Source of the DNA: a virus
Lineage: Duplodnaviria > Heunggongvirae > Uroviricota > Caudoviricetes
Length of the DNA stretch: 64,000 nt
IMG/VR virus record: IMGVR_UViG_2724679538_000004
Coordinates: 45,799-109,798 of that record
Reading direction: 5' to 3' (one strand)
A model generated the notes under the pieces. It had not been told where the DNA came from and ran no database searches. It was given only the letters and a program-made list of their open reading frames with translations. Below, piece by piece: positions 5,321-43,631 of this stretch. The position numbers were made by a program, and so were the translations under genes. The first letter of the stretch is position 1. Every line of letters starts with the position of its first letter.

Positions 5321-5344
5321 GTAAGCCTTGTTTAAACACATAAG

Positions 5345-5364
5345 ATAACAACTTGTTTAAACAC
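5345..5364 (+). promoter_or_regulatory. promoter/operator family motif (AACAACTTGTTTAA)
   Basis: Near-palindrome AAACAA-N-TTGTTT about 25 nt upstream of the nrdB start. Confidence 0.4.
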
Positions 5365-13647: not shown

Positions 13648-14183
13648 TAGATAAGTACCTACTATTCATATTATTTATCTTAAGTGATAGGATACTATAG
13701 TTTTCAGTCCATGTACTGGAGACTCGACCTGATGGGTGGAGGGTAGCGTCACTGGCGTCAGGTTTAAAAAAAAGCTCACTACCAGCGTAGAACCGGTGCC
13801 GTTTAGGCGCTGGGGAAGGGGGAACCAGAGTGAGCAGAGACAAGGGTCACTTTATGATTGTCGAGTCTGGGAAGTTCGAGAGGTTGAATCCAGTACTCCC
13901 CTTCATAAAGTGTGGGAAGATCTCGGTTCTGGGATGCTGTCATCCATAACTTCCCAAGCTTAAGCTGGCAGTAGACTTAAGCCATAACTTTTCAGGTTAT
14001 GAAACGACCAGGTTGGTGAGGAACTTTTGTACTCACCTCCCTGGGAGGATATTACCTGAAAAGACAACCTCTCACTTCGTTCGAGGTGAACTTCACTCAC
14101 TTCGTTCGTTCAGTTCAGATTAATTAAAAACCTCTTCTGGGAAGTAAGGTTTTAAAAAATAAATTTATTATTAATAAGTTATA

Positions 14184-15740: not shown

Positions 15741-15760
15741 AGAAAACAACTTGTTTTGAC
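15741..15760 (+). promoter_or_regulatory. promoter/operator family motif (AGAAAACAACTTGTTTTGAC)
   Basis: Near-palindrome upstream of the TerB-like gene. Confidence 0.4.
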
Positions 15761-15782: not shown

Positions 15783-16208
15783 ATGTTAGGTTTCTTTAAA
15801 AAGAAAACTCGTAAAGCTGTTATCGAAGTCAAAAAAATGGAGAACCGTGATGCGGTTGAAGCCACTGTGTGGGGCGCGTATATGATCTCCTATTCCGATG
15901 GCACATGCGATGCAAAAGAAATTTCCATTCTTGAGAAAACAATTGCAGCTCTGCCTGCGTTTTCTCCGTTTGCTGCTGAGATAGCCCAGATGAGTGCCAA
16001 TATCCGCGCTCAATACGAAGCCTCACCACGCCGAGCTAATGCTCAAGCTTTACGTGAACTGGCTGATGTGGCCGGGACTAATGATGCAGTAGATGTTCTG
16101 TGTCTGTGTATTGATATTGCCGATCAGGACGGTATTGGCGAGGAGGAAGAGTTGGTGTTGAAAAAAATCGCTCAGGCGCTCCAGCTTTCACTGGATGCTT
16201 ATCTCTAA
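15783..16208 (+). CDS. TerB-like domain protein
   Basis: Two repeated segments (ISYSDGTCDAKE... and IDIADQDGIGEEEE...IAQALQL) resembling the TerB tellurite-resistance fold. Confidence 0.55.
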   Translation: MLGFFKKKTRKAVIEVKKMENRDAVEATVWGAYMISYSDGTCDAKEISILEKTIAALPAFSPFAAEIAQMSANIRAQYEASPRRANAQALRELADVAGTNDAVDVLCLCIDIADQDGIGEEEELVLKKIAQALQLSLDAYL

Positions 16209-16371: not shown

Positions 16372-16397
16372 AGGGCCGACTATGGCCCTTTTGTTTC
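16372..16397 (+). terminator. intrinsic terminator
   Basis: AGGGCCGACTATGGCCCT hairpin plus T-run. Confidence 0.5.
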
Positions 16398-16408
16398 ATG
16401 GAGCGCGT

Positions 16409-17224
16409 ATGTTTGAGATTTCAACACTCACTTCTACTACCAAAGGTTTTCACGATAAGCCTTCAATGACCAGTCAGGAGATTGCCGAGTTGGTTGGCAG
16501 TCGTCACGACAGCGTTAAACGCACCATAGAACGGCTGGTAAAAACTGGCGTCATTACTTTTCCACCAATGGTGGAAAAGCCCACCGCAGGTCGCCCTTCG
16601 ACGATGTACCTGTTTGAAGGCGATCAGGGCAAACGAGACAGCATTGTCGTAGTTGCGCAGCTGTCGCCGGAATTTACGGCACGTTTAGTTGATCGCTGGA
16701 GAGAGTTGGAGTCCATATATGGCGCAGCTGTGACTCCAGCGATACCTCGTACCTACAAAGAAGCTCTTGTTCATTTGCTTCATCAGGTTGAAGAAAACGA
16801 GCGCCTTGAAAAGAAAAATGAGGCTTTGGAAGTAGCGCTGTCAAATGCAAAGCCAAAAGCCATTCTGATGGATACGATTTGCGGAACCGCAAATGAACTT
16901 TACGGGCTTAATGAAGCTGGGCGCATTCTCGGTACATCTGGTGTTGTTATGGGGGAATTTCTGGATTCTCTTGGCGACGTTTATGTAAAGCGCAAATACA
17001 CAACTATCAATCGTCAGTTCTTGAAGGCTTTCATTGACCGTGGCTATGGGAAAAATGTCGTGATCGGAACTGGACGTAACCAGGCAAAATTCACCTTTAA
17101 GGGGCTTTGCTTTGCGGCTGTGAAGCTGATTGCCGCAGGAAAAATAACCGTCAACTCCATCGAATATGAACCGTGCCGGGAACATGTTGAGCGTGAATTG
17201 AAGGGCGCAAAAAGTCTTCATTGA
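16409..17224 (+). CDS. Rha-family phage regulatory protein (antirepressor-like)
   Basis: MTSQEIAELVGSRHDSVKRTIERLV matches the Rha N-terminal signature; ATG 16409 with GGAG RBS. Confidence 0.55.
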   Translation: MFEISTLTSTTKGFHDKPSMTSQEIAELVGSRHDSVKRTIERLVKTGVITFPPMVEKPTAGRPSTMYLFEGDQGKRDSIVVVAQLSPEFTARLVDRWRELESIYGAAVTPAIPRTYKEALVHLLHQVEENERLEKKNEALEVALSNAKPKAILMDTICGTANELYGLNEAGRILGTSGVVMGEFLDSLGDVYVKRKYTTINRQFLKAFIDRGYGKNVVIGTGRNQAKFTFKGLCFAAVKLIAAGKITVNSIEYEPCREHVERELKGAKSLH

Positions 17225-17295: not shown

Positions 17296-17316
17296 AGAAA
17301 ACAACTTGTTTAATCA
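17296..17316 (+). promoter_or_regulatory. promoter/operator family motif (AAGAAAACAACTTGTTTAATC)
   Basis: Directly upstream of the RBS of the 17331 gene. Confidence 0.4.
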
Positions 17317-17330
17317 TCAAGGAAAAACAC

Positions 17331-17900
17331 ATGTGCGAGAAATGCAAAGCGATAGCTGATGAACAAAATGCCCTATTTGAAGAAATGGGTGCTAATGAGC
17401 TGGTAAAAATGTTAGCCATTCTTCGGGGAATAGAAGACGTTTCCATATTTGAGAGAGTGCTAACAGCACATAGTTTTAAGTCTACCTTTGAAGAGCCAAT
17501 TCAGGTTGTCGCTTTGGCGCACCATTTTGGTGTTCATTATCTTGCTGAAAAAGAGCGAGCTAAAAAGTTGCAGGCGACTTTGGATATGGTGAGCGAGCCT
17601 CAACGAACTCATGACGATAACAAGAGTGAGACGATTATTGCTGACAAAGATCGTGAAATTGCCGGACTCAAATCCTCTCTAACAATGTTGATGTCCGCAA
17701 TGAACCTGGTGTCATCTCAGGCTGGCTTAAAAATGCCATCACTAAATAGCTATGATCCGATGGCAGTGCGCCAGCTGCTTGGTGCAATGGCTGATCAGCT
17801 TGACGACACGAAAAATCGTATTGAAGATATGATGCGGGAACTTAGTCATCGTCATAATCTGACAACTCAGCCACATAAAGCTTTTCAAGTATCACATTAA
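17331..17900 (+). CDS. hypothetical protein
   Basis: 189-aa ORF with AAGGAAA RBS. Confidence 0.45.
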   Translation: MCEKCKAIADEQNALFEEMGANELVKMLAILRGIEDVSIFERVLTAHSFKSTFEEPIQVVALAHHFGVHYLAEKERAKKLQATLDMVSEPQRTHDDNKSETIIADKDREIAGLKSSLTMLMSAMNLVSSQAGLKMPSLNSYDPMAVRQLLGAMADQLDDTKNRIEDMMRELSHRHNLTTQPHKAFQVSH

Positions 17901-18414: not shown

Positions 18415-18635
18415 CGTTTTACCTCTTTAAAGAAAGGCTATTAATTTAATGGTTAAGGTGCAGTCACAGGCATTCAATTGAAGTGTAGAAAAAATTGAAG
18501 GCGCTAAGCGATAAGCGCTAATCAATGTAGCATAATACGTTGTTGTTGTAACAATAAAACAACATGTAATTTTGACGTCCATCGCCTTAATAACATCTTT
18601 ATCCCCTTTTTAACTTATTCATAATTAAACCAATT

Positions 18636-18654
18636 AGAAAATAATTTGTTTACT
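18636..18654 (+). promoter_or_regulatory. promoter/operator family motif (AGAAAATAATTTGTTTACT)
   Basis: Upstream of the methyltransferase-fusion gene. Confidence 0.35.
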
Positions 18655-18663
18655 GGTTTGATT

Positions 18664-20349
18664 ATGACAACTGCCCTTTCAATCACTGACACCTTCAAAA
18701 CAAGTTCAGAAGTTGACTATCGAAAAGAGCTTAACCTCATCCATAAAATCGTTGCAGAGTGCGAACGCGAGATCGCTTTCATGCGCCAGGTACATGATTA
18801 CGTATATGGCGATGAACGCCATAAGATGATTAATCGTTTGTTACGACTTAACTACCGTCCAGATGATGAGAACGCTCGTTTTAATAACATTGTACTGGAC
18901 AAGGCTGATCTCGAATGGGTGAAGCAGAACATCTGGGCTGAATACTGGAAAAAGGTCACTGATATGACTAACGTTCTGCTGATCATGCCAGCTTCCCGTC
19001 GCGAGGAGTGGCGTGAGCAATTTATCGAGGGCAAGCAGGAAATCACCAAAACTGACAGAACTGGCTACCAGATGAAGGTTAAGGAGTTCGTTGGAGTACC
19101 CGAGTTCAAGGTAGAAACTGTCATACCAACGATGATTAGCCTTCTAAATGACAGACATAAATATCTTTCTGAGCGCGTGTACGGTTTGTTTAAGGTGCTG
19201 AGTCCTGCACATAAGACCAACAAAACGAACGGCTTTAGCGAACGTTTGATCATTGCCAATTGCATTACTGATTTTTGGCGGGATAGCGTAAGTGTTAATT
19301 ATAAGCTTGAGGACTACATTGACGATCTGCGGGTATTGCTGCATTTCTTCGCGCACAAAGAGTTCATTACTATTAATCGCAGTTCGCAGATGCTATCCCT
19401 GGCATACAGAGCTAATGGCTGCAACACCGGTGAGTGGGTGAGCGTCGACGGCAATTTAATGCGTGTGAAGATGTTCAAGAACGGTAACGTTCACTTCGAA
19501 ATCCACCCTGACGTGGCCTGGAAGTTGAATGAAGTTCTGGCGCACAGTATGCCATCAGCCATACCTGCACCATGTCGTACCGCGCCAAAAACGCGAGCGC
19601 CAAAAGAGTTTGGCACTATTCATAAGATTATTTCAGACCCTGTACGAATCGCTTTGCGAGACGGACGACGTACCCGTAATCAAGAAGCCTGGTACTTTTC
19701 TGATTCATGTTTGCAGAAAAATCAGGTGGAAGAGTTGGAGCGTACATTAAGTTTTATTGGAGGAGTACGGGAGAACAGTCAGTGGACGTTCCCCTATGAT
19801 GCGACACAAACAATAAACAGTATCGTTGATACGGGGCTAGTTCCAGAAGCGAAATCACACCAGTTCTATCCAACACCGCATGTAATCGCTGAGTATGTGG
19901 CGAGAGCGATCGATCATAAGCCTGGAGAAACTCTTTTGGAACCGGAAGCCGGGCGTGGTGATTTGTTGTCCTGTATTGACGCTAACCGGGAAGATATTAC
20001 CTGCATAGAATTAGCTCCCCTTTTTGCGGATATCCTCCGTTCAAAGGGGTACGCGAATACGATTTGTTGCGACTTCTTGAAATGGTCAGAGAGTAATGCA
20101 GGCTATCAATTCGACAAAATCGTTATGAATCCCCCCTACTCTTTTAATCGCTATAAAGAGCACACGCTATCTGCTCTTGGGCATCTGAAAGTTGGAGGCA
20201 GGCTGGTGGCCGTGTTGCCGGGAAACTCGCCTTCGCTTAATTGGATGACTTTGGATAATTACGTTTATGCAAAGGGGAAATCTTTCACTGGTGAGTTCGC
20301 TGATACGGGGGTTACTGTCAGCGTGTATGTCTTCAAACGCGTAAAATAA
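18664..20349 (+). CDS. DNA methyltransferase with a ~400-aa N-terminal domain of unknown function
   Basis: C-terminal ~160 aa carries FYPTP, LEPEAGRGDL (SAM-binding) and NPPY motifs; ATG 18664. Confidence 0.65.
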   Translation: MTTALSITDTFKTSSEVDYRKELNLIHKIVAECEREIAFMRQVHDYVYGDERHKMINRLLRLNYRPDDENARFNNIVLDKADLEWVKQNIWAEYWKKVTDMTNVLLIMPASRREEWREQFIEGKQEITKTDRTGYQMKVKEFVGVPEFKVETVIPTMISLLNDRHKYLSERVYGLFKVLSPAHKTNKTNGFSERLIIANCITDFWRDSVSVNYKLEDYIDDLRVLLHFFAHKEFITINRSSQMLSLAYRANGCNTGEWVSVDGNLMRVKMFKNGNVHFEIHPDVAWKLNEVLAHSMPSAIPAPCRTAPKTRAPKEFGTIHKIISDPVRIALRDGRRTRNQEAWYFSDSCLQKNQVEELERTLSFIGGVRENSQWTFPYDATQTINSIVDTGLVPEAKSHQFYPTPHVIAEYVARAIDHKPGETLLEPEAGRGDLLSCIDANREDITCIELAPLFADILRSKGYANTICCDFLKWSESNAGYQFDKIVMNPPYSFNRYKEHTLSALGHLKVGGRLVAVLPGNSPSLNWMTLDNYVYAKGKSFTGEFADTGVTVSVYVFKRVK

Positions 20350-21704: not shown

Positions 21705-21725
21705 AAGGCCATAAGTTATGGCCTT
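21705..21725. terminator. hairpin (AAGGCCATAAGTTATGGCCTT)
   Basis: Inverted repeat after the stop codon; no clean T-run. Confidence 0.4.
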
Positions 21726-21726
21726 A

Positions 21727-21785
21727 AATAAATTGTTTTCTACCTTTTCTTATTTGTGAAAATAACCACAACTAGAAAACAATGG
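21727..21785 (+). promoter_or_regulatory. sigma70-like promoter (TTGTTTTC ... TGTGAAAAT) plus operator half-site
   Basis: Nearly identical to the promoter at 27652-27718. Confidence 0.45.
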
Positions 21786-21793
21786 AGTTAAGA

Positions 21794-22435
21794 ATGTCTC
21801 GCATTTCCGAAGCACACATGTTCGCCGCTGGCGCTCATGGTGGCGTTGGCCAGAAAAGAAAATATACCGGTGAAGATTATATCAATCACCCGGTTGCTGT
21901 CCGAGAGATTGTTGCATTGCATGACGGAACCGTGGAGATGCAGATCGCGGCGCTTCTGCATGATGTGGTCGAAGACACCAATGTAACCACAGAGATGGTA
22001 CGTGATCACTTCGGTGAGCGCGTAGCTGAAATGGTTCAGGCTCTGACCAATATTGCAAGGCCAGAAGACGGCAATCGAATACAGCGTTTCATCATCAATG
22101 TCCGGGAGCTGGAGCAAAATCTCGACATGCAGACGCGCATGATCAAGCTGGCTGACCTGCTCGACAATACCTCTTCTATCGTGAGTCGCGATCCTGAGTT
22201 TTCAGCTATCTACCTTGCAGAGAAAGAGCTGATGCTGGACGTACTTTTTAACGGGAAGGAGATTGGTACCAACGCTGATGTTGTCGAGTACATGGAGAGG
22301 ATAGGTATAGAACACCCGTTGCTATTAAGCGCAATGGCGAAAGTCACTGAAGGTATTGCGCTTCTGAAACCGGTACTCATCAAACGTTATGAAAAACACA
22401 AATCGCTGATCTGGAGCGCGTGGGAGGCTGCATGA
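21794..22435 (+). CDS. HD-domain small alarmone hydrolase, (p)ppGpp-hydrolase-like (SpoT/Mesh1 family)
   Basis: HGGVGQKRKYTGEDYINHPVAV and AALLHDVVEDT match the RelA/SpoT HD hydrolase signature; GGAG RBS before ATG 21794. Confidence 0.75.
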   Translation: MSRISEAHMFAAGAHGGVGQKRKYTGEDYINHPVAVREIVALHDGTVEMQIAALLHDVVEDTNVTTEMVRDHFGERVAEMVQALTNIARPEDGNRIQRFIINVRELEQNLDMQTRMIKLADLLDNTSSIVSRDPEFSAIYLAEKELMLDVLFNGKEIGTNADVVEYMERIGIEHPLLLSAMAKVTEGIALLKPVLIKRYEKHKSLIWSAWEAA

Positions 22436-26292: not shown

Positions 26293-26312
26293 TACTGTAT
26301 GTACATACAGTA
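26293..26312. promoter_or_regulatory. LexA (SOS) box
   Basis: Perfect 20-bp palindrome TACTGTATGTACATACAGTA (CTGT-N8-ACAG) about 15 nt upstream of the UmuD'-like start. Confidence 0.8.
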
Positions 26313-26328: not shown

Positions 26329-26718
26329 ATGGGATTCCCATCTCCTGCAGCGGATTATGTTGAAAGCCGTATTTCTCTTGATCGGCAGATAATTAGACAT
26401 CCTTCAGCGACCTACTTCCTGCGAGCGGCTGATAGCCATCACCGCGAAGGAATATTGCAGGGGGCGCTGCTGGTGGTCGATTCTTCACTAACTCCGGTTG
26501 ATGGTTCACTGCTTGTATGTGCTATTGATGGGGAATTTCGTGTAAAAAAATACCGTAAGTATCCGCGTCAGTACCTGGAGGATTTAAGAACTGGCAAGAA
26601 GGAAGCATTGCCAAAGGATGACGATGGATGCACTGGCAGTACTGCCGTGTTTGGTGTCATCACTCACATTATCAACGACGCAAGAAGTGGCGAATTTGAT
26701 GATTGTCCTGTGATGTAG
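26329..26718 (+). CDS. umuD: UmuD'-like protein (pre-processed form, HumD-like)
   Basis: Begins MGFPSPAADYVE, i.e. at the position of the UmuD Cys24/Gly25 self-cleavage site as I recall it; Ser/Lys dyad positions and GEFxVKK, VFGV(I/V)xH(I/V) conserved; AAGAGG RBS. Confidence 0.8.
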   Translation: MGFPSPAADYVESRISLDRQIIRHPSATYFLRAADSHHREGILQGALLVVDSSLTPVDGSLLVCAIDGEFRVKKYRKYPRQYLEDLRTGKKEALPKDDDGCTGSTAVFGVITHIINDARSGEFDDCPVM

Positions 26719-27506: not shown

Positions 27507-27651
27507 TTATTTCGCTCCATGCATATTGGCCGAAATGAGTTCAAACGATACCAATATGAATAATAGATGCGTTACTTTAAGACACTGTGGATTAAATACA
27601 AAGCATGGCTACCAACAGAAGGAACAAAAGATACTGGTTACAAATACCCGT

Positions 27652-27718
27652 AAATAAATTGTTTTCTACCTTTTCTTAATTGTGATAATAAACCACACAA
27701 GAAAACAAATTGTTTAGG
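27652..27718 (+). promoter_or_regulatory. sigma70-like promoter (TTGTTTTC, extended -10 TGTGATAAT) followed by operator CAAGAAAACAAATTGTTTAGG
   Basis: Read directly; same architecture at 21727-21785. Confidence 0.5.
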
Positions 27719-27728
27719 AGTGGCAAAA

Positions 27729-28028
27729 ATGCTGAACATTACCCAAGCCTACCAGGTGGCATTGATTAGTGCATCTCATACATCAGAGGAAGATGCTCGC
27801 CGATTCATGATCGCAAGCAATGAGCTGGATTGGGTTTCACAAATTGACGGCGGTTGTATTGTCCACGCCTGGTTACAGGATGATGTCTGGAAAGACAACT
27901 TGCGTCGATATGGTATATCCGAAGGCGCAATTGCTAACATTCAGAAAGTACTTGATGTAGGCTTTGACTCTGTACATTTCGATTGTGGCGCACCGGTCGT
28001 TGAAGGGCTTGAGTGCTGGAACTGGTAA
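27729..28028 (+). CDS. hypothetical protein
   Basis: ATG 27729 with AGGAG RBS. Confidence 0.45.
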   Translation: MLNITQAYQVALISASHTSEEDARRFMIASNELDWVSQIDGGCIVHAWLQDDVWKDNLRRYGISEGAIANIQKVLDVGFDSVHFDCGAPVVEGLECWNW

Positions 28029-28064
28029 TCCGGCAAACGTTCCATACTATGTAACGGAGAATTT

Positions 28065-28250
28065 ATGCTTAAAGAGGACTCATATCTACTAAAGGCGCTT
28101 GAAATGCGTGGCGTTGAACCTACAGTGAAAAACGCTCACGATATCTACCTTCAGTTTTCACCGGAGCTGAAACGGCTCATAAATCAATACGGGGTTAATG
28201 ACTCAAGTGTTAAAGCAATGATAGATGATGAATTAGACCATCTCATCTAA
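28065..28250 (+). CDS. hypothetical small protein
   Basis: 61-aa ORF with GGAG RBS. Confidence 0.35.
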   Translation: MLKEDSYLLKALEMRGVEPTVKNAHDIYLQFSPELKRLINQYGVNDSSVKAMIDDELDHLI

Positions 28251-28402
28251 TCGTTTCCTATGATAATGGTTTTCACTTTGAGATTGTTATTTTTCATAGC
28301 CAAAGCTGATGTTTGTGGAAGGTGGATTGATAAACGGATGCGTATTTAGGTTATACAAGTGAGAAAATTGATAATATATAAACGCGATTTTTATGTGATG
28401 GA

Positions 28403-28972
28403 ATGGATGTAATGGAAACCCAGAACCAACAAACAAAACCTCTGAATAACATTTATGCGTGGATTCTAGCGTTCATGCCTTTCTTCTTTGCAGTATCGCC
28501 GGAAGAGTATACCAATTACGCTATTATAATTGGGGGTGTAACTACCATCGGTTTGTTAGTAGCTGACAGAATGGCTCTATCGGAGTCTGGCTGTGAACCA
28601 CCTTCAATTCTATGGGGGGTATTCCTCCTGCCTGTCTATCTCTGGAAGCGCGCGACTATTACAAAAGGCAGCAGAGTGCCATTTATCATAATCGTTGCGT
28701 CGCTGGCTTGGGTTATCTTCATCGGCATCCCACACAAGGACGAGGTTGCTCTTGAAGAAGCAGCCTGCCCTCTCGTGACAACTATTCTGAAAGAGAATAA
28801 CGGTTCGACTGCACCAAAATGTATGAAGGTGACAATAGAGGACAAGGTGACGGATAAGTTCTATAGAGCAACGGCTACACTAGACAATGGTAATGACATT
28901 AACATTACTCTGGAACTTACCGGCGACAGGAACTTCTACGTCCGTGTTCCAAATGTTTATCTGAACAACTAA
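28403..28972 (+). CDS. membrane protein (multiple hydrophobic segments)
   Basis: Several predicted transmembrane stretches. Confidence 0.45.
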   Translation: MDVMETQNQQTKPLNNIYAWILAFMPFFFAVSPEEYTNYAIIIGGVTTIGLLVADRMALSESGCEPPSILWGVFLLPVYLWKRATITKGSRVPFIIIVASLAWVIFIGIPHKDEVALEEAACPLVTTILKENNGSTAPKCMKVTIEDKVTDKFYRATATLDNGNDINITLELTGDRNFYVRVPNVYLNN

Positions 28973-29100
28973 CGGTTGCAACTTATTGATAATGGCGGTC
29001 ACAATTTGATTCTTTTCTATAAGAATCCGTTGATCGCCACTACTCCCCTTCCATACCTGCAACCACATCCTTAAATATCAATTAGTTATAGTTGTTTATA

Positions 29101-29124
29101 CCAATAAGAAAACAACTAAATAAC
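29101..29124 (+). promoter_or_regulatory. promoter/operator family motif (variant)
   Basis: CCAATAAGAAAACAACTAAATAAC; no convincing gene downstream. Confidence 0.3.
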
Positions 29125-29313
29125 AGATCAACGAAATGTCAATGCTTTCGCCCGATTTGGTCTATAAAATTGACGTTTTCACACATCACTTCTTATACCC
29201 GCAATCCTACGCAGCAGACAGCGCCACAGCGTCCAATTTTCACCACAGATGACCCAACAACTACCAATAAAAACACACGCTCAAAATCGCTCCCGTTGCG
29301 TTACACAACCATA

Positions 29314-29356
29314 TAAACAACTTGTTTTCAGGCATAACAAAACAACTAAATAACAC
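29314..29356 (+). promoter_or_regulatory. promoter/operator family motifs (TAAACAACTTGTTTTCAGG and CATAACAAAACAACTAAATAACAC)
   Basis: Immediately upstream of the A/C-rich noncoding tract. Confidence 0.35.
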
Positions 29357-29900
29357 ATATGCCATTCCCCAAAACAACCAACCTCTTTATGGCAGGCTAC
29401 CGAAAAGACCCACCTCTTCTTCCCAGGCTACCGGACAACCAACCTAACTTTCACAGGCAATTCGAAACCTCCATACGCGCGATACCCACGACACGCCATT
29501 CCCCAAATAGCGAAGAACCACCGAAACCCCAACGAAGCTTGTAACCGCAAGGATTTCCTCAATCCCAAAAGACACGAAACAGAACATTCGAGGGAAACGC
29601 CATTACCCAATACACGAATAACTACAAAAGCCTTTCACGCACTCCATACAAGCAACTCAAACACAATAACGAAAGGAATCGCCCACCTGCCATTACTCCA
29701 TACACGGAGAAGAACAATCACCAAAACGTCGAGAACAACCCAGAGAAGAACCACCGCAAAACGAACGAAACCATATAAACCGACAGAGAGAACTACACAC
29801 CCAATTCACCAACAGAAATAGTCGCCGTATAGAACGTTCAGGGAGGAGTGAGTATTAACGCCTATAGAGAGCTTGAGACAGATAAAACACGAAGAAAACA
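29357..29900 (+). other. A/C-rich, G-poor noncoding tract with dispersed GCCATT(A/C)C(C/T)C...ACACG repeats (candidate untranslated transcript)
   Basis: No credible ORF on either strand; composition skew visible by eye; bounded by promoter-like motifs upstream and a hairpin/T-run downstream. Confidence 0.35.
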
Positions 29901-29946
29901 CAACATGTATAACGGAGAAGCCAGGTATGTATAAGTGGGGAGTGGA

Positions 29947-29968
29947 GGAGGGGTGTCGCCTCCTTTTT
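29947..29968 (+). terminator. terminator-like hairpin plus T-run
   Basis: GGAGG-GGTGTCG-CCTCC then TTTTT. Confidence 0.45.
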
Positions 29969-30032
29969 CGTATTTATTCAACTCCTGATTTTATCCCCCC
30001 GTAAAACCCCTACGGTCAGCCTTCGGTCCATA

Positions 30033-30173
30033 CAGGGAAAAGGTTGCATCCCGCTACAGAAACGGCTGGGTTGCCTTCGGGGAACGGCTGGAGGTTTTCA
30101 GGGAAACGGTCGAGTTGCCTGTGTGGGTTTCGGGAAAAGGCTCGATGCCGGTTCAGGAACGGTGGCGTACCGG
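30033..30173. repeat. about six tandem imperfect ~22-bp repeats of (C)AGGGAAA(A/C)GG type (iteron-like)
   Basis: CAGGGAAAAGG, CGGGGAACGG, CAGGGAAACGG, CGGGAAAAGG, CAGGAACGG read in series. Confidence 0.55.
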
Positions 30174-30475
30174 TATAGCGAGAGGGAGAGTTGCGGCTAC
30201 CCACCTGTAATGTGCGGGAAGAAGGGAGACTCTCACGTATAGGCGAACCTACTTCCCGCTGGATTCCCTCTGAATGCCCAGCTACAGCGTAATTGTGCCA
30301 GACAGTCCGCGGGTCACAATCGATTTCAGTAGGTTTTCGGGGAGAGGATTATTCTGCCCACCAGCTCCCTGCGGCCAGTAAATCAGAATAATGTAAAAAG
30401 TGCCCACGGTACTGAACCTGAAAAGTCACTACTAAAACTGCATTTACCGGAATAAAACTCTTTTTCACCTATGTG

Positions 30476-30518
30476 TTATTGCGATAATAACACCAACGAG
30501 AAAACAAGTTGTTTACGG
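30476..30518 (+). promoter_or_regulatory. promoter (-10-like GCGATAAT) plus operator CGAGAAAACAAGTTGTTTACGG
   Basis: Read directly. Confidence 0.45.
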
Positions 30519-30525
30519 AGTGGTA

Positions 30526-30837
30526 ATGAATACCTCATTGGTTCTTGGTCTTGCAGAAGGTCAGGACAGAAAAGAAAAGCCAACTTTGATGGGACACCTC
30601 ACATTGTTGGATATCGTAGCGAACGGAACTTCTATTCGACTGTTTCGTGAAAAAGCTATTACCTTCGACAAAGTGAATTTAACGCGCTATGTGATGGTTG
30701 TTCGTCGCCAGCGAGGAAGAGGGTGGATGTCAGTTCAGAAAATGTGGCCAGAGGACCAGCTTGAACTGGCACTGATGGAAGTGAACCGCGTAGCCCAGCA
30801 AGAAATCCAACGAGCTTCTGTTCAGGCAGTGGCTTAA
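30526..30837 (+). CDS. hypothetical protein
   Basis: ATG 30526 with ACGGAG RBS. Confidence 0.45.
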   Translation: MNTSLVLGLAEGQDRKEKPTLMGHLTLLDIVANGTSIRLFREKAITFDKVNLTRYVMVVRRQRGRGWMSVQKMWPEDQLELALMEVNRVAQQEIQRASVQAVA

Positions 30838-30871
30838 GCATGTGCAAGCAGTAGTTAGTCGAGTGTACGAC

Positions 30872-30900
30872 AGCCCTGATTCCTTACAGGGCTTTTTTGT
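30872..30900 (+). terminator. intrinsic terminator
   Basis: AGCCCTGATTCCTTACAGGGCT plus TTTTTT. Confidence 0.6.
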
Positions 30901-30924
30901 ATTGTAAGTAACTACTTACAATAA
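30901..30924. promoter_or_regulatory. copy of recurrent palindrome (ATTGTAAGTAACTACTTACAATAA)
   Basis: Inverted repeat about 40 nt upstream of the next start. Confidence 0.35.
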
Positions 30925-30963
30925 TAGAATTACCTCGTTCGTTAACTTACATACAGGGAGAGT

Positions 30964-31362
30964 ATGATGAGCGTAAAACGCGAAAACCTGACAATCGATA
31001 TGTACTATGCCTCTGAAAAAGCAGAAGACGAAGCGGTTGCAAAAATTACCGTGATGATTCGTGACAATGAATCTGGTGCAGAGGTACAAACAAGCACTCT
31101 TGTACGCACAGGAACAGGCGAAGAGGCGACTTATGCCGTCGGCTATCAGAATATCAACGATGCCACGGACCCGCTGTTACTTAAACTGGAAAACCACTTC
31201 CGCAGTGTCGATAAGGTGCTTTTTGAGAAGCTGATGGAAGCCGTGGATGAGGTGTATACCTCAAACCTCAACAGCAATACTACCTGGATGGGACAGTATG
31301 GCCTGCGAATTACCACCGGCGCTCAAGTAGAAACCGTCATCCCCGAAAGCGTATTCGCTTAA
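30964..31362 (+). CDS. hypothetical protein
   Basis: 132-aa ORF with GGGAGAG RBS. Confidence 0.45.
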   Translation: MMSVKRENLTIDMYYASEKAEDEAVAKITVMIRDNESGAEVQTSTLVRTGTGEEATYAVGYQNINDATDPLLLKLENHFRSVDKVLFEKLMEAVDEVYTSNLNSNTTWMGQYGLRITTGAQVETVIPESVFA

Positions 31363-31372
31363 TCCTCTTTGA

Positions 31373-31399
31373 ATGGCGCGTAAACCGCGCCATTTTCTT
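31373..31399 (+). terminator. intrinsic terminator
   Basis: ATGGCGCGTAAACCGCGCCAT plus T-rich run. Confidence 0.55.
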
Positions 31400-31405
31400 A
31401 TGCCC

Positions 31406-31424
31406 GATAACAATTTGTTTTCTG
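31406..31424 (+). promoter_or_regulatory. promoter/operator family motif (GATAACAATTTGTTTTCTG)
   Basis: Read directly. Confidence 0.4.
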
Positions 31425-31443
31425 CCTTATCTGATTTGTGAAA

Positions 31444-31854
31444 ATGATTTCACTGAAGCAACTTAATAAGGAAACCATCATGGAACTTGATATCTATATC
31501 GAGACGCAGCCTAAAAACGATCTGAATAACGAGGAATCCAGAAGACAGGTTGCTTACTTCCGCAAGTTCAATGCGCTCGTTGGGTGGATGGAGCGCAACG
31601 TAGGTGAAGTCGAAAATTGTGAGCTTTTAGAATTAACGATGAATGACATTTGTTTTCTGAAAGCTCATTTGATGCACATAAACGAAAGTAATTGCGAAGA
31701 GTACTTACCTACACAGGAAGGGTTTTTCTTCGGCAGTCAGGAGTACGATGAAGGTTACTGGCATGACGTGGATAAGCTGAAAAAACTGGTGGAAGACCTG
31801 ATTAGGAACCACGACTTCCACAATAACAGACTGACATTTTGCGCCTGGTGGTAA
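31444..31854 (+). CDS. hypothetical protein (start uncertain; an ATG at 31480 has the better RBS)
   Basis: ORF in the expected cassette position. Confidence 0.4.
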   Translation: MISLKQLNKETIMELDIYIETQPKNDLNNEESRRQVAYFRKFNALVGWMERNVGEVENCELLELTMNDICFLKAHLMHINESNCEEYLPTQEGFFFGSQEYDEGYWHDVDKLKKLVEDLIRNHDFHNNRLTFCAWW

Positions 31855-32136
31855 ATATGGGGGATTTTAGAAAGCGTCTTAAGGAAAGAACTGAGCAGGC
31901 CAGGAGGCAAAACGCGTTTTCTGTTATCCGGTACGCGAAACAATTCAGTCGGAACAACAAGTCAGTTGAGGAAAAGATCCTCAGCGTAATAGGACGATAA
32001 TTATTGAGGCTACCAGCATGGATAGCCTCACTGACTTTTCTTATAACCGAAGGTTAGTTTTGAAACCTGGCTAATGACTTCCAGTACCTGTCTTGATAAT
32101 TCAGCCTGCATTAACTTCTTTTCTGCCTTATCTACA

Positions 32137-32175
32137 CTGCGATAATTACACCAACAAGAAAACAACATGTTTACG
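32137..32175 (+). promoter_or_regulatory. promoter (-10-like TGCGATAAT) plus operator CAAGAAAACAACATGTTTACGC
   Basis: Read directly. Confidence 0.45.
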
Positions 32176-32185
32176 CAGTGAGGAT

Positions 32186-32473
32186 ATGCACATGACTGAT
32201 TTCACCATTACTACCAAAGCACAAAATGTATTCCTTGAATCATGGCTGGACTTGCCGGAAACAGAACAGCAAGAAATGGATCATGTGGAATATGACGAGC
32301 AGGTAAGCACGCGATTCTTCCACTTTGAGGGCTGCGTTTACGATATTGCCGACTTCATGCGAGATGACCGCTTCCCTGAATGGCACGCAAGCTATCCACT
32401 TAACGCCTTCGCCATGCTGATGATCCGTGTGGATGACTCAGGGGATACCATCGATGTCGGTTTGCTCCACTAA
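32186..32473 (+). CDS. hypothetical protein
   Basis: ATG 32186 with GAGGAT RBS. Confidence 0.4.
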   Translation: MHMTDFTITTKAQNVFLESWLDLPETEQQEMDHVEYDEQVSTRFFHFEGCVYDIADFMRDDRFPEWHASYPLNAFAMLMIRVDDSGDTIDVGLLH

Positions 32474-32503
32474 ATAATAAGGGACCACCAGCATTGGTGG
32501 CTC

Positions 32504-32776
32504 TTATATCATTTTTGCGAGCTTATTCATTTTGGTGAAGTCAATTGGCAATTCGGCCAAAGGTATCAAATAGTCTTTTTGTGCCCAGAAGTTTGGAGAT
32601 CTGCCCACTACATACGAAAGCCGATAAGCGTCTTCATCGGTAATCGGCTTTCTTTGTTCTAGTATAGCTTCAGCATAGTCGATACTAACCGCCATGCTGC
32701 GAGCCAATAATTCAACCCCAATACCGTAATCGTCATAAATGGCATCAAGAAATTTTTTCACATCAAGTTGGGACAT
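32504..32776 (-). CDS. XRE-type helix-turn-helix DNA-binding protein (putative regulator)
   Basis: LARSMAVSIDYAEAILEQRKP resembles an HTH motif; lone minus-strand gene among plus-strand cassettes. Confidence 0.45.
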   Translation of the reverse strand: MSQLDVKKFLDAIYDDYGIGVELLARSMAVSIDYAEAILEQRKPITDEDAYRLSYVVGRSPNFWAQKDYLIPLAELPIDFTKMNKLAKMI

Positions 32777-32861
32777 ATGATTATCTCCTCAAATAAGCCA
32801 AGTTTTTATTATATAACGATATTTTTCGATTGTGGGTAATATGATTACACCCGCAGGCTAA

Positions 32862-32945
32862 AAACACCAACCTCTTACCTCCAGGCTACCGATTAACCCA
32901 CCTGTTCCCGTCCGGCTACCGCAACTTTCCACTTTGACGCCTTAT
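32862..32945. repeat. paralog of the 29375-29465 element (contains two CAGGCTACCG-type direct repeats)
   Basis: Aligns by eye with 29375-29465. Confidence 0.5.
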
Positions 32946-32953
32946 TCGTACAA

Positions 32954-32992
32954 CGATAATTAACACCAACAAGAAAACAATTTGTTATTTAC
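32954..32992 (+). promoter_or_regulatory. promoter (-10-like CGATAAT) plus operator CAAGAAAACAATTTGTTATTTACG
   Basis: Read directly. Confidence 0.45.
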
Positions 32993-33007
32993 GATAAGGA
33001 ATTAATC

Positions 33008-33490
33008 ATGAATTTTATCGTTACTGTAAACGCACCCGCACATGGCAATATCGCTGTAACGTTCTCTGACATTGAAAAACGAGTACTTGGTGCATGGCGC
33101 GACAATGAGACGGTAGAACTGTCAGCACAAGAAAAATGCATTATTGCACGCGACATCATTGGTAATCGTCGTTACTCGCGGGTATTTGAGAAAGCGTATG
33201 TGGTAAATTCTGGATTCGGAACGTTCGTCTTTCCGGTGCGCTCCGGGCGATTCTGCCAGTCCAAGCTGATTGAGTTCGCTACGCAGATTTCTGTCTGGAT
33301 TAAAACTCAATCGTCGTTCAAATTTTCCGACGATGAAGCAGTATCGCAGGGGATGCGGATCGCCAACAATGCGATAAAATGCAAAAACATTACGTATGCC
33401 GCTGGCGTTGACACATGGAAACTGTTTTGCGCTAACTTTATGCTGAATGTATACGCAAGCAACCGCATCCACATCCTTGATGGCGTGTAA
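33008..33490 (+). CDS. hypothetical protein
   Basis: 160-aa ORF with AAGGAA RBS. Confidence 0.45.
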   Translation: MNFIVTVNAPAHGNIAVTFSDIEKRVLGAWRDNETVELSAQEKCIIARDIIGNRRYSRVFEKAYVVNSGFGTFVFPVRSGRFCQSKLIEFATQISVWIKTQSSFKFSDDEAVSQGMRIANNAIKCKNITYAAGVDTWKLFCANFMLNVYASNRIHILDGV

Positions 33491-33539
33491 CTGAGAAGAG
33501 GGCCAGAAACGGCCCTTTCTCTATAGCCACCAGCTGCCG

Positions 33540-33657
33540 CAGGGAAATTTTCAGAAACGGCGAGGAACGCATTCATGAACCGACGGGAAACGGCCAAGAT
33601 TTTTTCGGGAAACGGCTGCATTCGCCTTTATGTAGAAAAACATCGGGAAGCTGGTGG
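33540..33657. repeat. second array of GGGAAACGG-type repeats, flanked by CCACCAGCT / AGCTGGTGG inverted repeat
   Basis: CAGGGAAA, CGACGGGAAACGGCC, CGGGAAACGGCTG, CGGGAAGCTGG read in series. Confidence 0.5.
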
Positions 33658-34370: not shown

Positions 34371-34383
34371 CAGATTCCATTAA

Positions 34384-35034
34384 TTACGCTTTGAAAGCAT
34401 CAGCCAGATAGTTATAGAAATCATTTTTAATAAAGCGATATTGCTGCGTACCAGCTTTTGCGCTTCCCATTCCTTTGACTTTCTCAACAAGTCCAAGACG
34501 TTCACAAAGATTAATTAGCTGATTAGCTTGAGTATAGCCAGCGTCAAGTTTAATCTCACACGCTTTTTTAGCTTCATTCATTAAATCGAAAACAGCGCCA
34601 TTTGTGAACGTCTCGATCTCGTCGTTAATCATATCGATTAAAGCGAATACACGAGATCCTGACATATCAGCGACGGAATATACACATGTTCCAGCTTTAA
34701 TAGATTTAACAAGATAAACCAGCTTTTCCAGTGAATAACTATTAGTCATAGCGTCACGGAAAAATACTTCTGGGGCTTGTTTACTTGCTTTAATCGCATA
34801 GTAGAAAACAGAACATAATTTATCGTCTTCTACTGCGTTAACCACGTTGTTGATGAAGTAAGCAAGCTTAGTGGTCGCAGCTTGCATATTTGCTTTGTCT
34901 GCTTTAGTGTGCGTACCATTTTTATAATGTTCGTTATATGTTTGAGTTGCCAGATCTGCTTTTTCGCGCAGCTCATCGGATACAATGGAAGCAGCTTCAA
35001 TGATGGATTTTTTAGAAATGATAATGTTAGCCAT
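34384..35034 (-). CDS. hypothetical protein
   Basis: 216-aa ORF. Confidence 0.5.
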   Translation of the reverse strand: MANIIISKKSIIEAASIVSDELREKADLATQTYNEHYKNGTHTKADKANMQAATTKLAYFINNVVNAVEDDKLCSVFYYAIKASKQAPEVFFRDAMTNSYSLEKLVYLVKSIKAGTCVYSVADMSGSRVFALIDMINDEIETFTNGAVFDLMNEAKKACEIKLDAGYTQANQLINLCERLGLVEKVKGMGSAKAGTQQYRFIKNDFYNYLADAFKA

Positions 35035-35629: not shown

Positions 35630-36226
35630 TCAAAAAGGCAAAATTCGTTCAACCCAATCGAACAAAACAACTATTTTTCTACCGTTCTCGACACGTAGTG
35701 TAACCTGACAAGCATCTGCGCCTGCTGACACCCCCTCAATTTCACGGCCATCCGCCATGTACACCCTTATAGATTTGTTTGCTTTATGGGCCTGGTTGCA
35801 AATTGCAAAAAAATCACGGCGTGATGGCCGATTGTCAACATAATCAGGGTGAACTGTTAATCGACCTTTGAAATCGTGAGCGATACCGTCAACCACACCT
35901 GATTCAATTGTACTAATGCGTTCAAGTGGAAGCCTTATACGATTTTCTTTGTCAAAAGGGGCTGGGCAAAGATCAACTTTGTTACGAGATGGCATGAGAC
36001 CATAAACGTACATGCAAAACGCCTGGCCATCTTCGAGAGTGGCCCTTACAGGAATTTGTTCTCTGCGCCAGAACATCAGGAGGTTTTCAATATTCTTATA
36101 ATCTCGCGGCCAGACCTCCGCTGGCACGCCGTAGGTGATGTCTTTAGTCGTCATGTCATTATAAAGTTGTTGGCAATATATCCATTGTACCATCCCAGGT
36201 TGTGAAGACCCGATATGTTTTAGCAT
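35630..36226 (-). CDS. hypothetical protein (start uncertain because it overlaps the upstream gene)
   Basis: 198-aa ORF. Confidence 0.45.
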   Translation of the reverse strand: MLKHIGSSQPGMVQWIYCQQLYNDMTTKDITYGVPAEVWPRDYKNIENLLMFWRREQIPVRATLEDGQAFCMYVYGLMPSRNKVDLCPAPFDKENRIRLPLERISTIESGVVDGIAHDFKGRLTVHPDYVDNRPSRRDFFAICNQAHKANKSIRVYMADGREIEGVSAGADACQVTLRVENGRKIVVLFDWVERILPF

Positions 36227-37464: not shown

Positions 37465-37761
37465 TTACGGTAGCCTGCTAAGGATTTCGTCCAGATCTTC
37501 CTTAGTCAAATTTGAGTTTTCATAAATCTGCATAATCCTTTCGCGAGCTTTAGCAGAAGCTTTTGCAGTTGCGCCCAAAGAAGAAGCAATTTTGTCAAAC
37601 TCGGCCATCGGCATCTTTTCAAGTACAACATTGATGATTTCAGACTTTGACAGTTTTAGGTTTTTGTCTTTCAGTTTGGCTTTAAATTTTGTTAGTTTGT
37701 TGTTCGCCTGTTCAGTTAATGCGACCTGACAATACGTTGTTTTTTTCTCGCTCATAGTCAA
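37465..37761 (-). CDS. small DNA-binding-like protein (possible ribbon-helix-helix)
   Basis: N-terminal strand-then-helix pattern (TTYCQVALTEQANNKL); ATGA-coupled to the helicase gene. Confidence 0.35.
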   Translation of the reverse strand: MTMSEKKTTYCQVALTEQANNKLTKFKAKLKDKNLKLSKSEIINVVLEKMPMAEFDKIASSLGATAKASAKARERIMQIYENSNLTKEDLDEILSRLP

Positions 37762-42535: not shown

Positions 42536-42802
42536 ATGACGTTAACCGATAAACAAAAGGACATTATCAAAACGCTCAATCTCGGTTATGAACGAGGACA
42601 TCTACTTGATCTGGACGAATTGCTTGAAGTTTTGCCCTACAAAACATCTAAGCAAAGTATCCAGTTCTCTATTCGCGCACTGATCAAAAAAGGGCTGGTG
42701 GAGAAAGGAAACACTCGCCAGCGCAGTGATACTCGATATCACCGTCGTACTCTTGGGTTAACTACTTTAGGTCGAGCACGAGCCAAATTACTGGTGATGT
42801 AA
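42536..42802 (+). CDS. small basic protein, possible winged-helix DNA-binding
   Basis: 88-aa basic ORF. Confidence 0.35.
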   Translation: MTLTDKQKDIIKTLNLGYERGHLLDLDELLEVLPYKTSKQSIQFSIRALIKKGLVEKGNTRQRSDTRYHRRTLGLTTLGRARAKLLVM

Positions 42803-42903: not shown

Positions 42904-42917
42904 TAATTTGACACCCC

Positions 42918-42964
42918 AGAAAACAAGTTGGTTAGTGAATGCAATAAACAAGTTGTTTTAGAGC
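42918..42964 (+). promoter_or_regulatory. two copies of the promoter/operator family motif
   Basis: CAGAAAACAAGTTGGTTAG and AATAAACAAGTTGTTTTAGAG. Confidence 0.4.
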
Positions 42965-42998
42965 GCATGGACGCGCTCTGTGTGTTTTAGAGGGATCT

Positions 42999-43631
42999 AT
43001 GACTGTCGAAAAAGACGAGGGAAAAACTCGCCTGACACCAGCGGAGTGGGCCGAAGCAGAAGCCAAATGGACGTCAGGCGAATATACACTCTCAAAGCTG
43101 GAGGAAGAGTACGGCATTCGCCGTGAAACACTCTCCAGACATTTCAAAAAGCGAGGATTGGAGAAAGGCGCAGACTCTGTTGGGAAGATGGTTCGCGAGT
43201 CTCTCAAATCTGACGCAGAGCTTCGTGCTAAAGCCCGTGCAGAAAAGATAGAAGAACGTCGTACACGTTATGACGGCTGGGCATATGCCTTGGGGCAGAT
43301 GGTGATGGTCGAAGTCACTACTGCTAAACGTGAGGGAAAACCTTTAGGGGGGATTGAGGATTCTCTTAAGAGCTTACAGAGAGCAAGTAATACCCTTGCA
43401 AAATGCTTTGAAATTTCGTCCAAAGCGTTGGGCATGGATCATGCGGAAAATGACGAGGAAGAAATTCCTAACCTGGTATTTGGCGAACTTACGCCTTCTC
43501 AGGTGGCGAAATTACGTCAGGAAGACGATGAGCCTGAAATCATCGATGACGAATTGCTTGAGGCACTAGAGGAAGAAGCTCTTAGCGAACTGGACGCCAG
43601 TGAGGAGGAGAGCGAAGGGGGAGATAAGTAA
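42999..43631 (+). CDS. terminase small subunit (putative)
   Basis: Immediately upstream of and coupled to the large terminase; acidic C-terminus. Confidence 0.5.
   Translation: MTVEKDEGKTRLTPAEWAEAEAKWTSGEYTLSKLEEEYGIRRETLSRHFKKRGLEKGADSVGKMVRESLKSDAELRAKARAEKIEERRTRYDGWAYALGQMVMVEVTTAKREGKPLGGIEDSLKSLQRASNTLAKCFEISSKALGMDHAENDEEEIPNLVFGELTPSQVAKLRQEDDEPEIIDDELLEALEEEALSELDASEEESEGGDK

Follow-up and report, generated by a model that had tools for sequence, protein, structure and literature searches.

An operator-like 17-base dyad at dispersed promoters of an SSU5/pHCM2-like phage-plasmid

The plasmid-prophage P1 silences its scattered lytic operons jointly through one kind of repressor site placed at many promoters, the asymmetric 17-bp C1 operator ATTGCTCTAATAAATTT, which is read by a monomer. 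On the IncP plasmid RK2, about a dozen promoters carry the short (12-13 bp) palindromic operators of KorA and KorB (GTTTAGCTAAAC and TTTAGCSGCTAAA) and replication, partition and other functions are coordinated through them, KorB itself being a member of the ParB family and the partner of a ParA. Here we describe a near-palindromic 17-base motif that recurs at dispersed promoters in a 64,000-nucleotide stretch of tailed-phage DNA (positions 45,799 to 109,798 of IMG/VR record IMGVR_UViG_2724679538_000004), hereafter the window. Sequence matches identify the window as part of an SSU5/pHCM2-like phage-plasmid. Such elements are widespread, and the group includes pHCM2 of Salmonella Typhi and pMT1 of Yersinia pestis. 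Among phage records, Escherichia phage Cyrano (pLF82) matches best, with 85-90% identity over 69-75% of the query, while Salmonella phage SSU5 and the Klebsiella elements are further away, and the nearest records in the E. coli and plasmid collections are ~91% identical. Position 1 of the window corresponds to ~64.9 kb of Cyrano and the small terminase gene at 42999 to the start of the Cyrano record. The region is present in 245 of 5426 complete E. coli genomes and also in 721 plasmid records from Klebsiella, Escherichia, Enterobacter, Yersinia and Salmonella. In the literature searched, we found no description of an operator or repressor of SSU5-like elements or of how the silence of their phage genes is controlled.

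By analogy, the apparent operator logic of the motif is closest to that of P1 C1 and RK2 KorA/KorB, and to that of omega from pSM19035 if the leading candidate binder, a small protein encoded right after parA (CYRAN_29 in Cyrano), does bind it. Unlike the P1 site, the motif contains a 13-bp dyad, its consensus AGAAAACAANTTGTTTA is unrelated to ATTGCTCTAATAAATTT, and its copies are predicted to lie mostly at +5 to +21 rather than over the -35 and -10 regions; the proteins examined included no C1 homologue. The RK2 operators also differ in sequence, the candidate here is of no recognisable family, and both of the element's ParB-like proteins are silent in lysogens, although the shared partnership with a ParA would become a further likeness should the candidate be the binder. 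With omega and with ParG of TP228, the candidate has in common the position of its gene right after that of a small Walker-type ParA, a long, basic and probably disordered N-terminal tail, and, putatively, a binding site in its own par promoter; omega likewise controls several plasmid promoters. Those proteins, however, read arrays of 7-8 bp repeats as opposed to the single dyad per site found here, about 20 targets here are phage genes, and the ribbon-helix-helix fold was not supported for the candidate by Pfam, PDB, Foldseek or hhalign. Finally, the promoter-early stem-loop (PeSL) cassettes of T4-type phages resemble part of the locus in being arrays of small genes without known function, each with an early-type promoter and a hairpin and with variable gene content among relatives, but they were described as recombination modules lacking an operator, whereas the array here carries a conserved operator-like dyad, and the one cassette replacement that we examined was not bounded by it.

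A shared motif downstream of extended -10 promoters

A search of the window for the motif AGAAAACAA-N-TTGTTTA (pattern AAGAAAACAANTTGTTTA, ≤3 mismatches) returned 14 matches against 0.41 expected, and none of 100 shuffled sequences reached 14, which bears out the motif family that an earlier note on this DNA had described from the sequence. When 52 sites from three genomes (window, Cyrano and SSU5) were turned into a weight matrix and a cut-off score of ≥14 was applied, the window gave 22 strand-hits against 0.3 expected. The 14 strong sites all fall within 5.3-43.0 kb, and the same matrix found none in the structural genes, which occupy 21 kb of the window. The core of the motif is the 13-bp dyad AAACAA-N-TTGTTT, whose central base carries 0.00 bits and whose flanking arm positions carry 1.3-1.8 bits; a 5' AGA extension has no mirror image, and positions -7 to -9 break the symmetry.

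The main promoter class consists, 5' to 3', of a poorly conserved -35, a TGnGATAAT extended -10, a spacer with a conserved CCA(A/C), the motif, and a GGAG-type ribosome-binding site (RBS), with the start codon 10-19 nt past the motif. A generic -35/-10 scan misses these promoters because their -35 is poor. Of the 18 promoters with a good -10, 16 place the motif 10-11 nt past it, and this gap stays constant while the distance from motif to start codon ranges from 10 to 40 nt across promoter classes. We place the putative transcription start at the CCA(A/C), and if it lies 7 nt past the hexamer, the centre of the dyad would be at about +14. The gene-proximal copies are always in the sense orientation and keep the 5' AGA, and the promoter contexts at the nrdB, helicase, parA and cobT sites are unlike the main class. 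The TGn of a sigma70 extended -10, ahead of a TATAAT-like hexamer, is found at 27681, 30480, 32138, 21755 and 31437; the extended -10 sequences previously reported (TGTGATAAT, TGTGAAAAT and TGCGATAAT) are present as stated, except that the CGATAAT at 32954-32960 lacks the TG.

At three promoters of the window (21.7, 27.7 and 31.4 kb) the -10 is preceded by an additional, inverted copy. The 21.7- and 27.7-kb promoters have this copy at a distance of 51 bp from the proximal copy or half-site, and in those at 21.7 and 31.4 kb it comes immediately past the preceding gene's terminator, which lies at 31371-31395 in the latter case. The terminase promoter instead carries two copies 25 bp apart, overlapping a promoter-like region with TTGACA (42908-42913) upstream of a leader hairpin. 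Of the positions listed in the earlier note, those at ~21772 and ~29101 proved to be half-sites only, and the full inverted copies at 21725-21741 and 27651-27667 had been missed. All sites and their promoter contexts are given in Table 1.

Table 1. Motif sites, promoter elements, terminators and candidate regulator genes of the window.
Feature	Position	Strand	Centre	Context
Operator AGATAACAACTTGTTTA	5343-5359	+	5352	29 nt upstream of nrdB-like gene 5389-6531
Operator	15741-15757	+	15750	upstream of TerB-like gene 15783-16208
Operator, perfect copy	17296-17312	+	17305	upstream of 189-aa gene 17331-17900
Operator AGAAAATAATTTGTTTA	18636-18652	+	18645	10 nt past CATAAT (18620-18625); upstream of DUF4942/methylase-like gene 18664-20349
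Inverted full operator	21725-21741	-	21732	promoter of HD-domain gene 21782-22435
Extended -10 TGTGAAAAT	21755-21763			promoter of HD-domain gene
Half-site AGAAAACAATGGAG	from 21774			51 bp from full copy at 21725-21741
Inverted operator AGAAAACAATTTATTTA	27651-27667	-	27658	51 bp upstream of 27709, over the -35 region
Extended -10 TGTGATAAT	27681-27689	+		between operators 27651-27667 and 27700-27716
Operator AGAAAACAAATTGTTTA	27700-27716	+	27709	begins 10 nt past the -10 hexamer
Half-site AGAAAACAACTAAATAA	29107-29123			within region free of open reading frames
Operator TGAAAACAAGTTGTTTA	29314-29330	-	29321	within region free of open reading frames
Extended -10 TGCGATAAT	30480-30488	+		upstream of 103-aa gene 30526-30837
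Operator AGAAAACAAGTTGTTTA	30499-30515	+	30508	upstream of 103-aa gene
Terminator	30872-30893			of 103-aa gene; -14.5 kcal/mol, z -5.1
Terminator	31371-31395			-15.6 kcal/mol, z -4.4
Inverted operator	31407-31423	-	31414	ahead of 124-aa gene 31480-31854
Extended -10 TGTGAAAAT	31437-31445			ahead of 124-aa gene
Extended -10 TGCGATAAT	32138-32146	+		upstream of 93-aa gene 32192-32473
Operator AGAAAACAACATGTTTA	32157-32173	+	32166	upstream of 93-aa gene
Bidirectional terminator	32478-32506			closes 93-aa gene
CGATAAT, no TG	32954-32960	+		upstream of 160-aa gene 33008-33490
Operator AGAAAACAATTTGTTAT	32972-32988	+	32981	upstream of 160-aa gene
Terminator	33493-33521			of 160-aa gene; -17.7 kcal/mol, z -4.1
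98-aa protein, candidate regulator	37465-37761	-		translationally coupled to UvsW-like helicase gene
88-aa protein	42536-42802	+		PHROG 900; weak LexA-DNA-binding-like match; directly upstream of double operator
Double operator	42918-42961	+ and -	42927 (+), 42952 (-)	upstream of small terminase gene 42999-43631

The 27.6-33.5 kb interval has the motif at five promoters, and four terminators close the units, each a GC-rich hairpin followed by a T-run (z -4.1 to -5.1); the three hairpins proposed from sequence inspection (30872-30893, 31371-31395 and 33493-33521) all fold well. The suggestion that at least six small genes each have their own copy is somewhat generous: the 132-aa gene at 30964-31362 has a promoter-like site without the motif, and the copies at 29.1-29.3 kb precede a region free of open reading frames (ORFs), not a gene. 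The products of the array, which the earlier note linked to possible host-takeover or anti-defence roles, all match PHROG families of unknown function, one of them, the 99-aa product of the gene at 27729-28028, with a DUF5983 domain, and the operator at 27700-27716 abuts the GGAG RBS of that gene. Gene content varies cassette by cassette among the relatives. The motif is also not a feature of the array alone, and the regulon it marks reaches the nrdB, TerB-like, DUF4942 methylase-like and HD-domain genes and the terminase operon in the window, to which the relatives add helicase, cobT and parA genes. Overall, it is well supported at the sequence level that the 17-bp motif is one shared operator-like dyad at dispersed promoters.

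As RNA, the leader that contains the motif forms no hairpin (-2.8 and -1.7 kcal/mol; z -0.4 and +0.7; no better than shuffles), and a hairpin in the leader was ruled out as the functional element. The AGAAAACAA leader might still be bound as an RNA-level operator by a translational repressor such as the FljA-like protein encoded at 35630-36226, since the FljA family represses fliC via its mRNA leader. The motif does lie in the predicted 5' leader beside the RBS, the surviving half-sites (21774 and 29107) retain the AGAAAACAA arm, and the FljA-family protein, which has an Hfq-like C-terminal match, is 75-79% conserved in all five elements compared. However, the inverted upstream copies present AGAAAACAA in no sense transcript, dyad symmetry is meaningless for a leader that does not fold, and the motif keeps its distance to the -10 rather than to the start codon. 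In the lysogen data described below, moreover, transcript levels are themselves at background and the FljA-like gene is weakly expressed (18). We consider an RNA operator highly improbable. The inverted copies outside the sense transcript, the non-folding leader and the dyad with a free centre therefore place the action of the motif on DNA.

Conservation of the motif across genera

Sites were found in relatives from four bacterial genera, at orthologous promoters: 18 in Cyrano (E. coli), 20 in the first 100 kb of SSU5 (Salmonella), 4 in the first 50 kb of pHCM2, 6 in pMT1 (Y. pestis) and 17 in the first 100 kb of pJN2-26 (Klebsiella), and a more distant K. pneumoniae element has the motif at its parA and helicase promoters. 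All 18 Cyrano sites are intergenic, 18-80 nt ahead of plus-strand genes, once three doubtful annotated starts are set aside. These three genes (34381-34737, 35805-36155 and 37903-38253 of L002) are annotated over a site in their 5' part; CYRAN_103, within the conserved ORF-free region, is probably not a gene, and for CYRAN_105 and CYRAN_110 the true start probably lies further downstream than annotated.

At nine orthologous promoters, the motif is identical between the window and SSU5 or pJN2-26 at fractions of 0.92 and 0.86, respectively, compared with 0.71 and 0.73 for the 17 nt upstream of it (the -10 and start region) and 0.42-0.54 for the other flanks. These figures are somewhat flattering, as the sites were picked by motif match, but the motif was nonetheless found at every orthologous position. 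The pair of operators 51 bp apart recurs in four genomes (window; Cyrano 93120/93171; SSU5 88325/88376; pJN2-26 28545/28596). The operator and half-site within the ORF-free region (29314-29330 and 29107-29123) are both kept in Cyrano, SSU5 and pJN2-26, the same three elements have orthologous sites to the nrdB-like operator, and the double operator of the terminase promoter is kept in Cyrano, SSU5 and pMT1, with one copy in pJN2-26. At the parA promoter, a 75-bp block with the motif as its sole dyad is invariant in four elements, while the DNA upstream of it is unrelated and unalignable.

Such similarity could also arise without a dedicated regulator if a promoter-leader cassette had been copied around the genome, its A-rich leader serving as an initial transcribed sequence or a translation enhancer. 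The block from the -35 to the RBS is indeed alike throughout the main class (D1, D5, D8), where the motif ends 10-19 nt ahead of the start codon, and the proximal copies are always sense with a conserved 5' AGA. A copied cassette would not explain, however, why the same 17 bases stand in the unrelated contexts of nrdB, helicase, parA, cobT and terminase, nor why they are better conserved than both the -10 region and the downstream leader; it assigns no role to the dyad's second arm or to the inverted copies upstream, and the central base is free, as in a dyad read by protein. Thus, we regard this explanation as quite unlikely.

Promoter silence in a lysogen and candidate binders

For E. coli LF82 carrying Cyrano as a plasmid, published RNA sequencing lists all Cyrano genes (PMC9928086, supplementary file 2); these data come from a relative of the window element under a single condition, and their background median is 9.8. 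Twelve of the 13 first genes behind a motif score 5.7-25.5, among them the terminase small subunit (7.1), helicase (21), cobT (7.8), nrdB (12.9) and the cassette genes CYRAN_101, 106, 108 and 111 (5.7-25.5), with parA at 50 (PMC9928086). Scores of 90-590 are seen for maintenance genes, toxin-antitoxin and repA among them, and a score of 7084 for one gene; parA-CYRAN_29-30 is the sole motif-bearing operon that is expressed, at 50-89 (PMC9928086). Near-consensus extended -10 promoters should fire unaided, yet they are silent, and the pattern therefore fits repression in the plasmid state; we infer this repression from one published lysogen data set of a relative.

The motif combines a dyad whose centre is unconstrained with a fixed position relative to promoter elements, as an operator does, and it is the type of site predicted to be read by a symmetric DNA-binding dimer. 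The claim that one operator-like dyad downstream of extended -10 promoters points to a single regulator is thus upheld by its symmetry, the fixed gap, its conservation and the silence in lysogens. We therefore lean, with only modest confidence, toward the view that the motif is the operator of a dispersed regulon, conserved across the SSU5/pHCM2/pMT1/Klebsiella group, that is held off by an element-encoded repressor. One probably dimeric DNA-binding protein, present in the plasmid-prophage state, would occupy the operator at roughly +5 to +21 of the transcript and block the binding or escape of RNA polymerase. At promoters with an inverted copy 51 bp upstream, or about five helical turns, it could bind cooperatively or form a small loop that sandwiches the -10, and at the terminase promoter its two sites would overlap the core promoter. 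In this way it would hold off roughly 10 to a dozen motif promoters in the window and 15-20 in a whole relative, covering nucleotide metabolism, the replicative helicase, cobT, small accessory cassettes and the terminase operon, until induction relieved the repression.

Several points weigh against this view. The transcription starts are placed from promoter sequence and binding of a protein to the dyad is a prediction; a symmetric dimer does not explain the 5' AGA or the constant sense orientation of the proximal copies; and the whole block from -10 to RBS is paralogous in the main class (family D1), so part of the similarity reflects common descent. Furthermore, the element behind the expression data is a relative with 85-90% identity, and H-NS can silence AT-rich promoters without a dedicated repressor, with which the lysogen data are compatible.

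The three regulators put forward in the earlier note did not stand. The 90-amino-acid (aa) helix-turn-helix (HTH) protein (32504-32776) has a homologue in SSU5 only and none in Cyrano, pMT1 or the first 100 kb of pJN2-26, all of which have the motif, and the Rha-like protein (16382-17224) is not shared, other genes being present at its location in Cyrano, where the motif is kept. Across genera the 88-aa protein shows 84-95% conservation, but in lysogens expression of its Cyrano orthologue does not rise above background (7.8 versus the median of 9.8; PMC9928086), so that this protein cannot hold promoters off in that state. At the terminase promoter, it is kept as a candidate with a role in the lytic phase.

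A broader form of that role is that a lytic-phase switch protein, for example this 88-aa protein, binds the motif in place of a lysogenic repressor: made after induction, it would shut early promoters at +14 and control terminase through the double site, and the silence of lysogens would be due to H-NS or an upstream master repressor. Its gene lies directly upstream of the sole 25-bp double site, at the start of the late operon; its conservation matches the invariance of the motif; it has the weak LexA-like match; the upstream copies near -37 are in a position compatible with activation; and the relatives have a separate CI-like HTH repressor near the integrase with a control region of its own and different repeats. 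Nevertheless, the near-consensus promoters are at background in lysogens, as is the 88-aa protein itself, most sites are centred near +14, a position suited to repression only, and the terminase promoter of pJN2-26 has a single site. On balance, a lytic-phase binder seems unlikely.

The CI-like HTH protein by the integrase (CYRAN_45) is also an unlikely reader of the dyad, being 56-66% conserved and not found in SSU5, and its control region has TAGTATAAGTT repeats and no motif. CYRAN_43, the top-expressed lysogen gene (7084), was rejected as poorly conserved and not found in SSU5, pMT1 or pJN2-26. Integrase, CI-like gene, a small divergent gene and one further gene form a module in the plasmid forms, namely Cyrano (L003, 40268-43038), pHCM2 (L126, 15387-18097), pMT1 and pJN2-26, with the TAGTATAAGTT repeats common to its control regions in place of the operator motif. 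Phage SSU5 (L005) does not have this module and may be a derivative without its former immunity region.

Among lysogen-expressed genes, only two small proteins are widely shared. One is the 98-aa protein of Table 1, whose Cyrano orthologue scores 114 in lysogens (PMC9928086). By eye it has a strand-helix-helix pattern, and it is 56-66% conserved, but its putative DNA-facing residues vary among orthologues though the motif does not; it has no PDB matches, and its single-sequence model was useless (pLDDT 51). It is a weak candidate regulator.

The other is the 119-aa basic protein encoded right after the small ParA (CYRAN_29; lysogen score 89, PMC9928086), which we infer to be the leading candidate. 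Its gene lies directly downstream of that of the small Walker ParA in Cyrano (29307-30334), SSU5, pHCM2, pJN2-26 and CP027615, and the family occurs in about 800 plasmids, all of this phage-plasmid group. The parA-CYRAN_29-30 operon is the only motif operon expressed, as would be expected if a repressor encoded there regulates its own operon negatively. Conservation of the protein (91-94%) exceeds that of ParA in pJN2-26 (83%), and in homologues at 47-52% identity the blocks MGDLAK, RPQGRPTRGK..I.SRTMS.EDE and FTRSDVIRAAI are invariant and the motif is unchanged. By eye, a basic tail is followed by a ParG/omega-like strand-helix-helix pattern, and in an AlphaFold monomer residues 1-47 are disordered and residues 48-60 and 70-84 helical, an arrangement that would suit a ribbon-helix-helix fold but is not diagnostic of it. 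That the CYRAN_29 family binds the dyad and is the global silencer of some 20 phage promoters is nonetheless a tentative proposal, and one we hold doubtful. The pLDDT of the model is only 64; no match was found in Pfam, PDB sequences or Foldseek, and hhalign against ParG and omega sequences gave a probability of <1%. The gene lies outside the window; pMT1 has six sites but no parA-CYRAN_29 operon; and co-variation is uninformative because motif and protein blocks are invariant even in the most distant element.

The pMT1 sites that persist without the ParA-partner gene would also be accounted for if the dyad were read by a host DNA-binding protein, conserved in Enterobacterales and recruited by the element. 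Elements from Escherichia, Salmonella, Klebsiella and Yersinia all have the motif in invariant form, and no element protein has so far been tied to it. We know of no enterobacterial regulator with this consensus, however, and the persistence of the pMT1 sites may reflect the young age of that element; a host reader is, in our judgement, very unlikely.

Further features of the window and significance of the operator

Between the double operator and the terminase start codon (42955-42998) there is a conserved GC-rich hairpin followed by GTGTGTTTTA. It resembles a leader terminator or a stabilising 5' hairpin, and if it acts as either, it would add an extra layer of late-gene control.

Within the array region, no ORF in a 1.5-kb stretch (28975-30470) exceeds 74 aa, and Cyrano, SSU5 and pJN2-26 have all kept this stretch. 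Its plus strand is A+C-rich at 29.0-29.9 kb (GC skew -0.4 to -0.49; AT skew up to +0.59), four GCCATT(A/C)C(C/T)CCA boxes lie in it, and it ends in a terminator-like hairpin (29942-29971); its RNA is predicted to fold no better than shuffles (z -1.35). Rfam gave no match at E ≤ 1 in 28.9-30.5 kb and none window-wide at gathering scores, and the annotated ORFs that overlap the region are at or near background in Cyrano lysogens. The region could be a long unstructured lytic-cycle RNA or a lytic replication origin. Two kinds of iteron-looking repeats occur nearby: a ~31-bp unit ending in CAGGCTACCG, in three tandem copies with others 3.4 kb away (29372-29460; 32861-32925), and a G-rich GGGAAACGG-type repeat with ~22 bp spacing in two clusters (30035-30170; 33584-33640). 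Each kind has one cluster flanking the A+C-rich region and another flanking the 160-aa gene; Tandem Repeats Finder scored neither kind. Also in the array, a 61-aa protein (28065-28250) has a weak, sub-threshold match to the T7 gp5.9 RecBCD inhibitor family (E = 0.005, 17 residues).

Elsewhere, an ORF-poor segment at 13700-14125 folds far better than shuffles (-157 kcal/mol, z -4.4) and matches no Rfam family, tRNA or tmRNA. Its Cyrano counterpart is annotated as the 44-aa CYRAN_81, has a lysogen score of 117 (PMC9928086) and is 91-98% conserved; the segment probably encodes a structured non-coding RNA. A near-perfect LexA box, TACTGTATGTACATACAGTA (26293-26312; 2 mismatches to the consensus, none expected by chance), lies 17 nt ahead of a UmuD-like S24 peptidase gene (26329-26718) whose Cyrano orthologue is strongly expressed, and more so in macrophages (PMC9928086). 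The FljA-family protein mentioned above ("repressor of phase-1 flagellin", Pfam E = 2.5e-83; minus strand), found in all five elements compared, may let the element switch off host flagellin, and the 3' coding end of its gene contains a motif-like sequence at window position 35671 and in Cyrano as well.

One conserved operator at ~20 promoters would be a concrete handle on how phage-gene silence is controlled in this group: it allows the lytic regulon to be listed from sequence alone, and it gives a simple assay, with one dyad and one reporter, for tracking down both the repressor and the inducing signal. If the ParA partner is that repressor, partition and prophage maintenance would share one protein, the ~20 dispersed sites might double as centromere-like sites, and plasmid segregation would be linked to the lysis-lysogeny decision.

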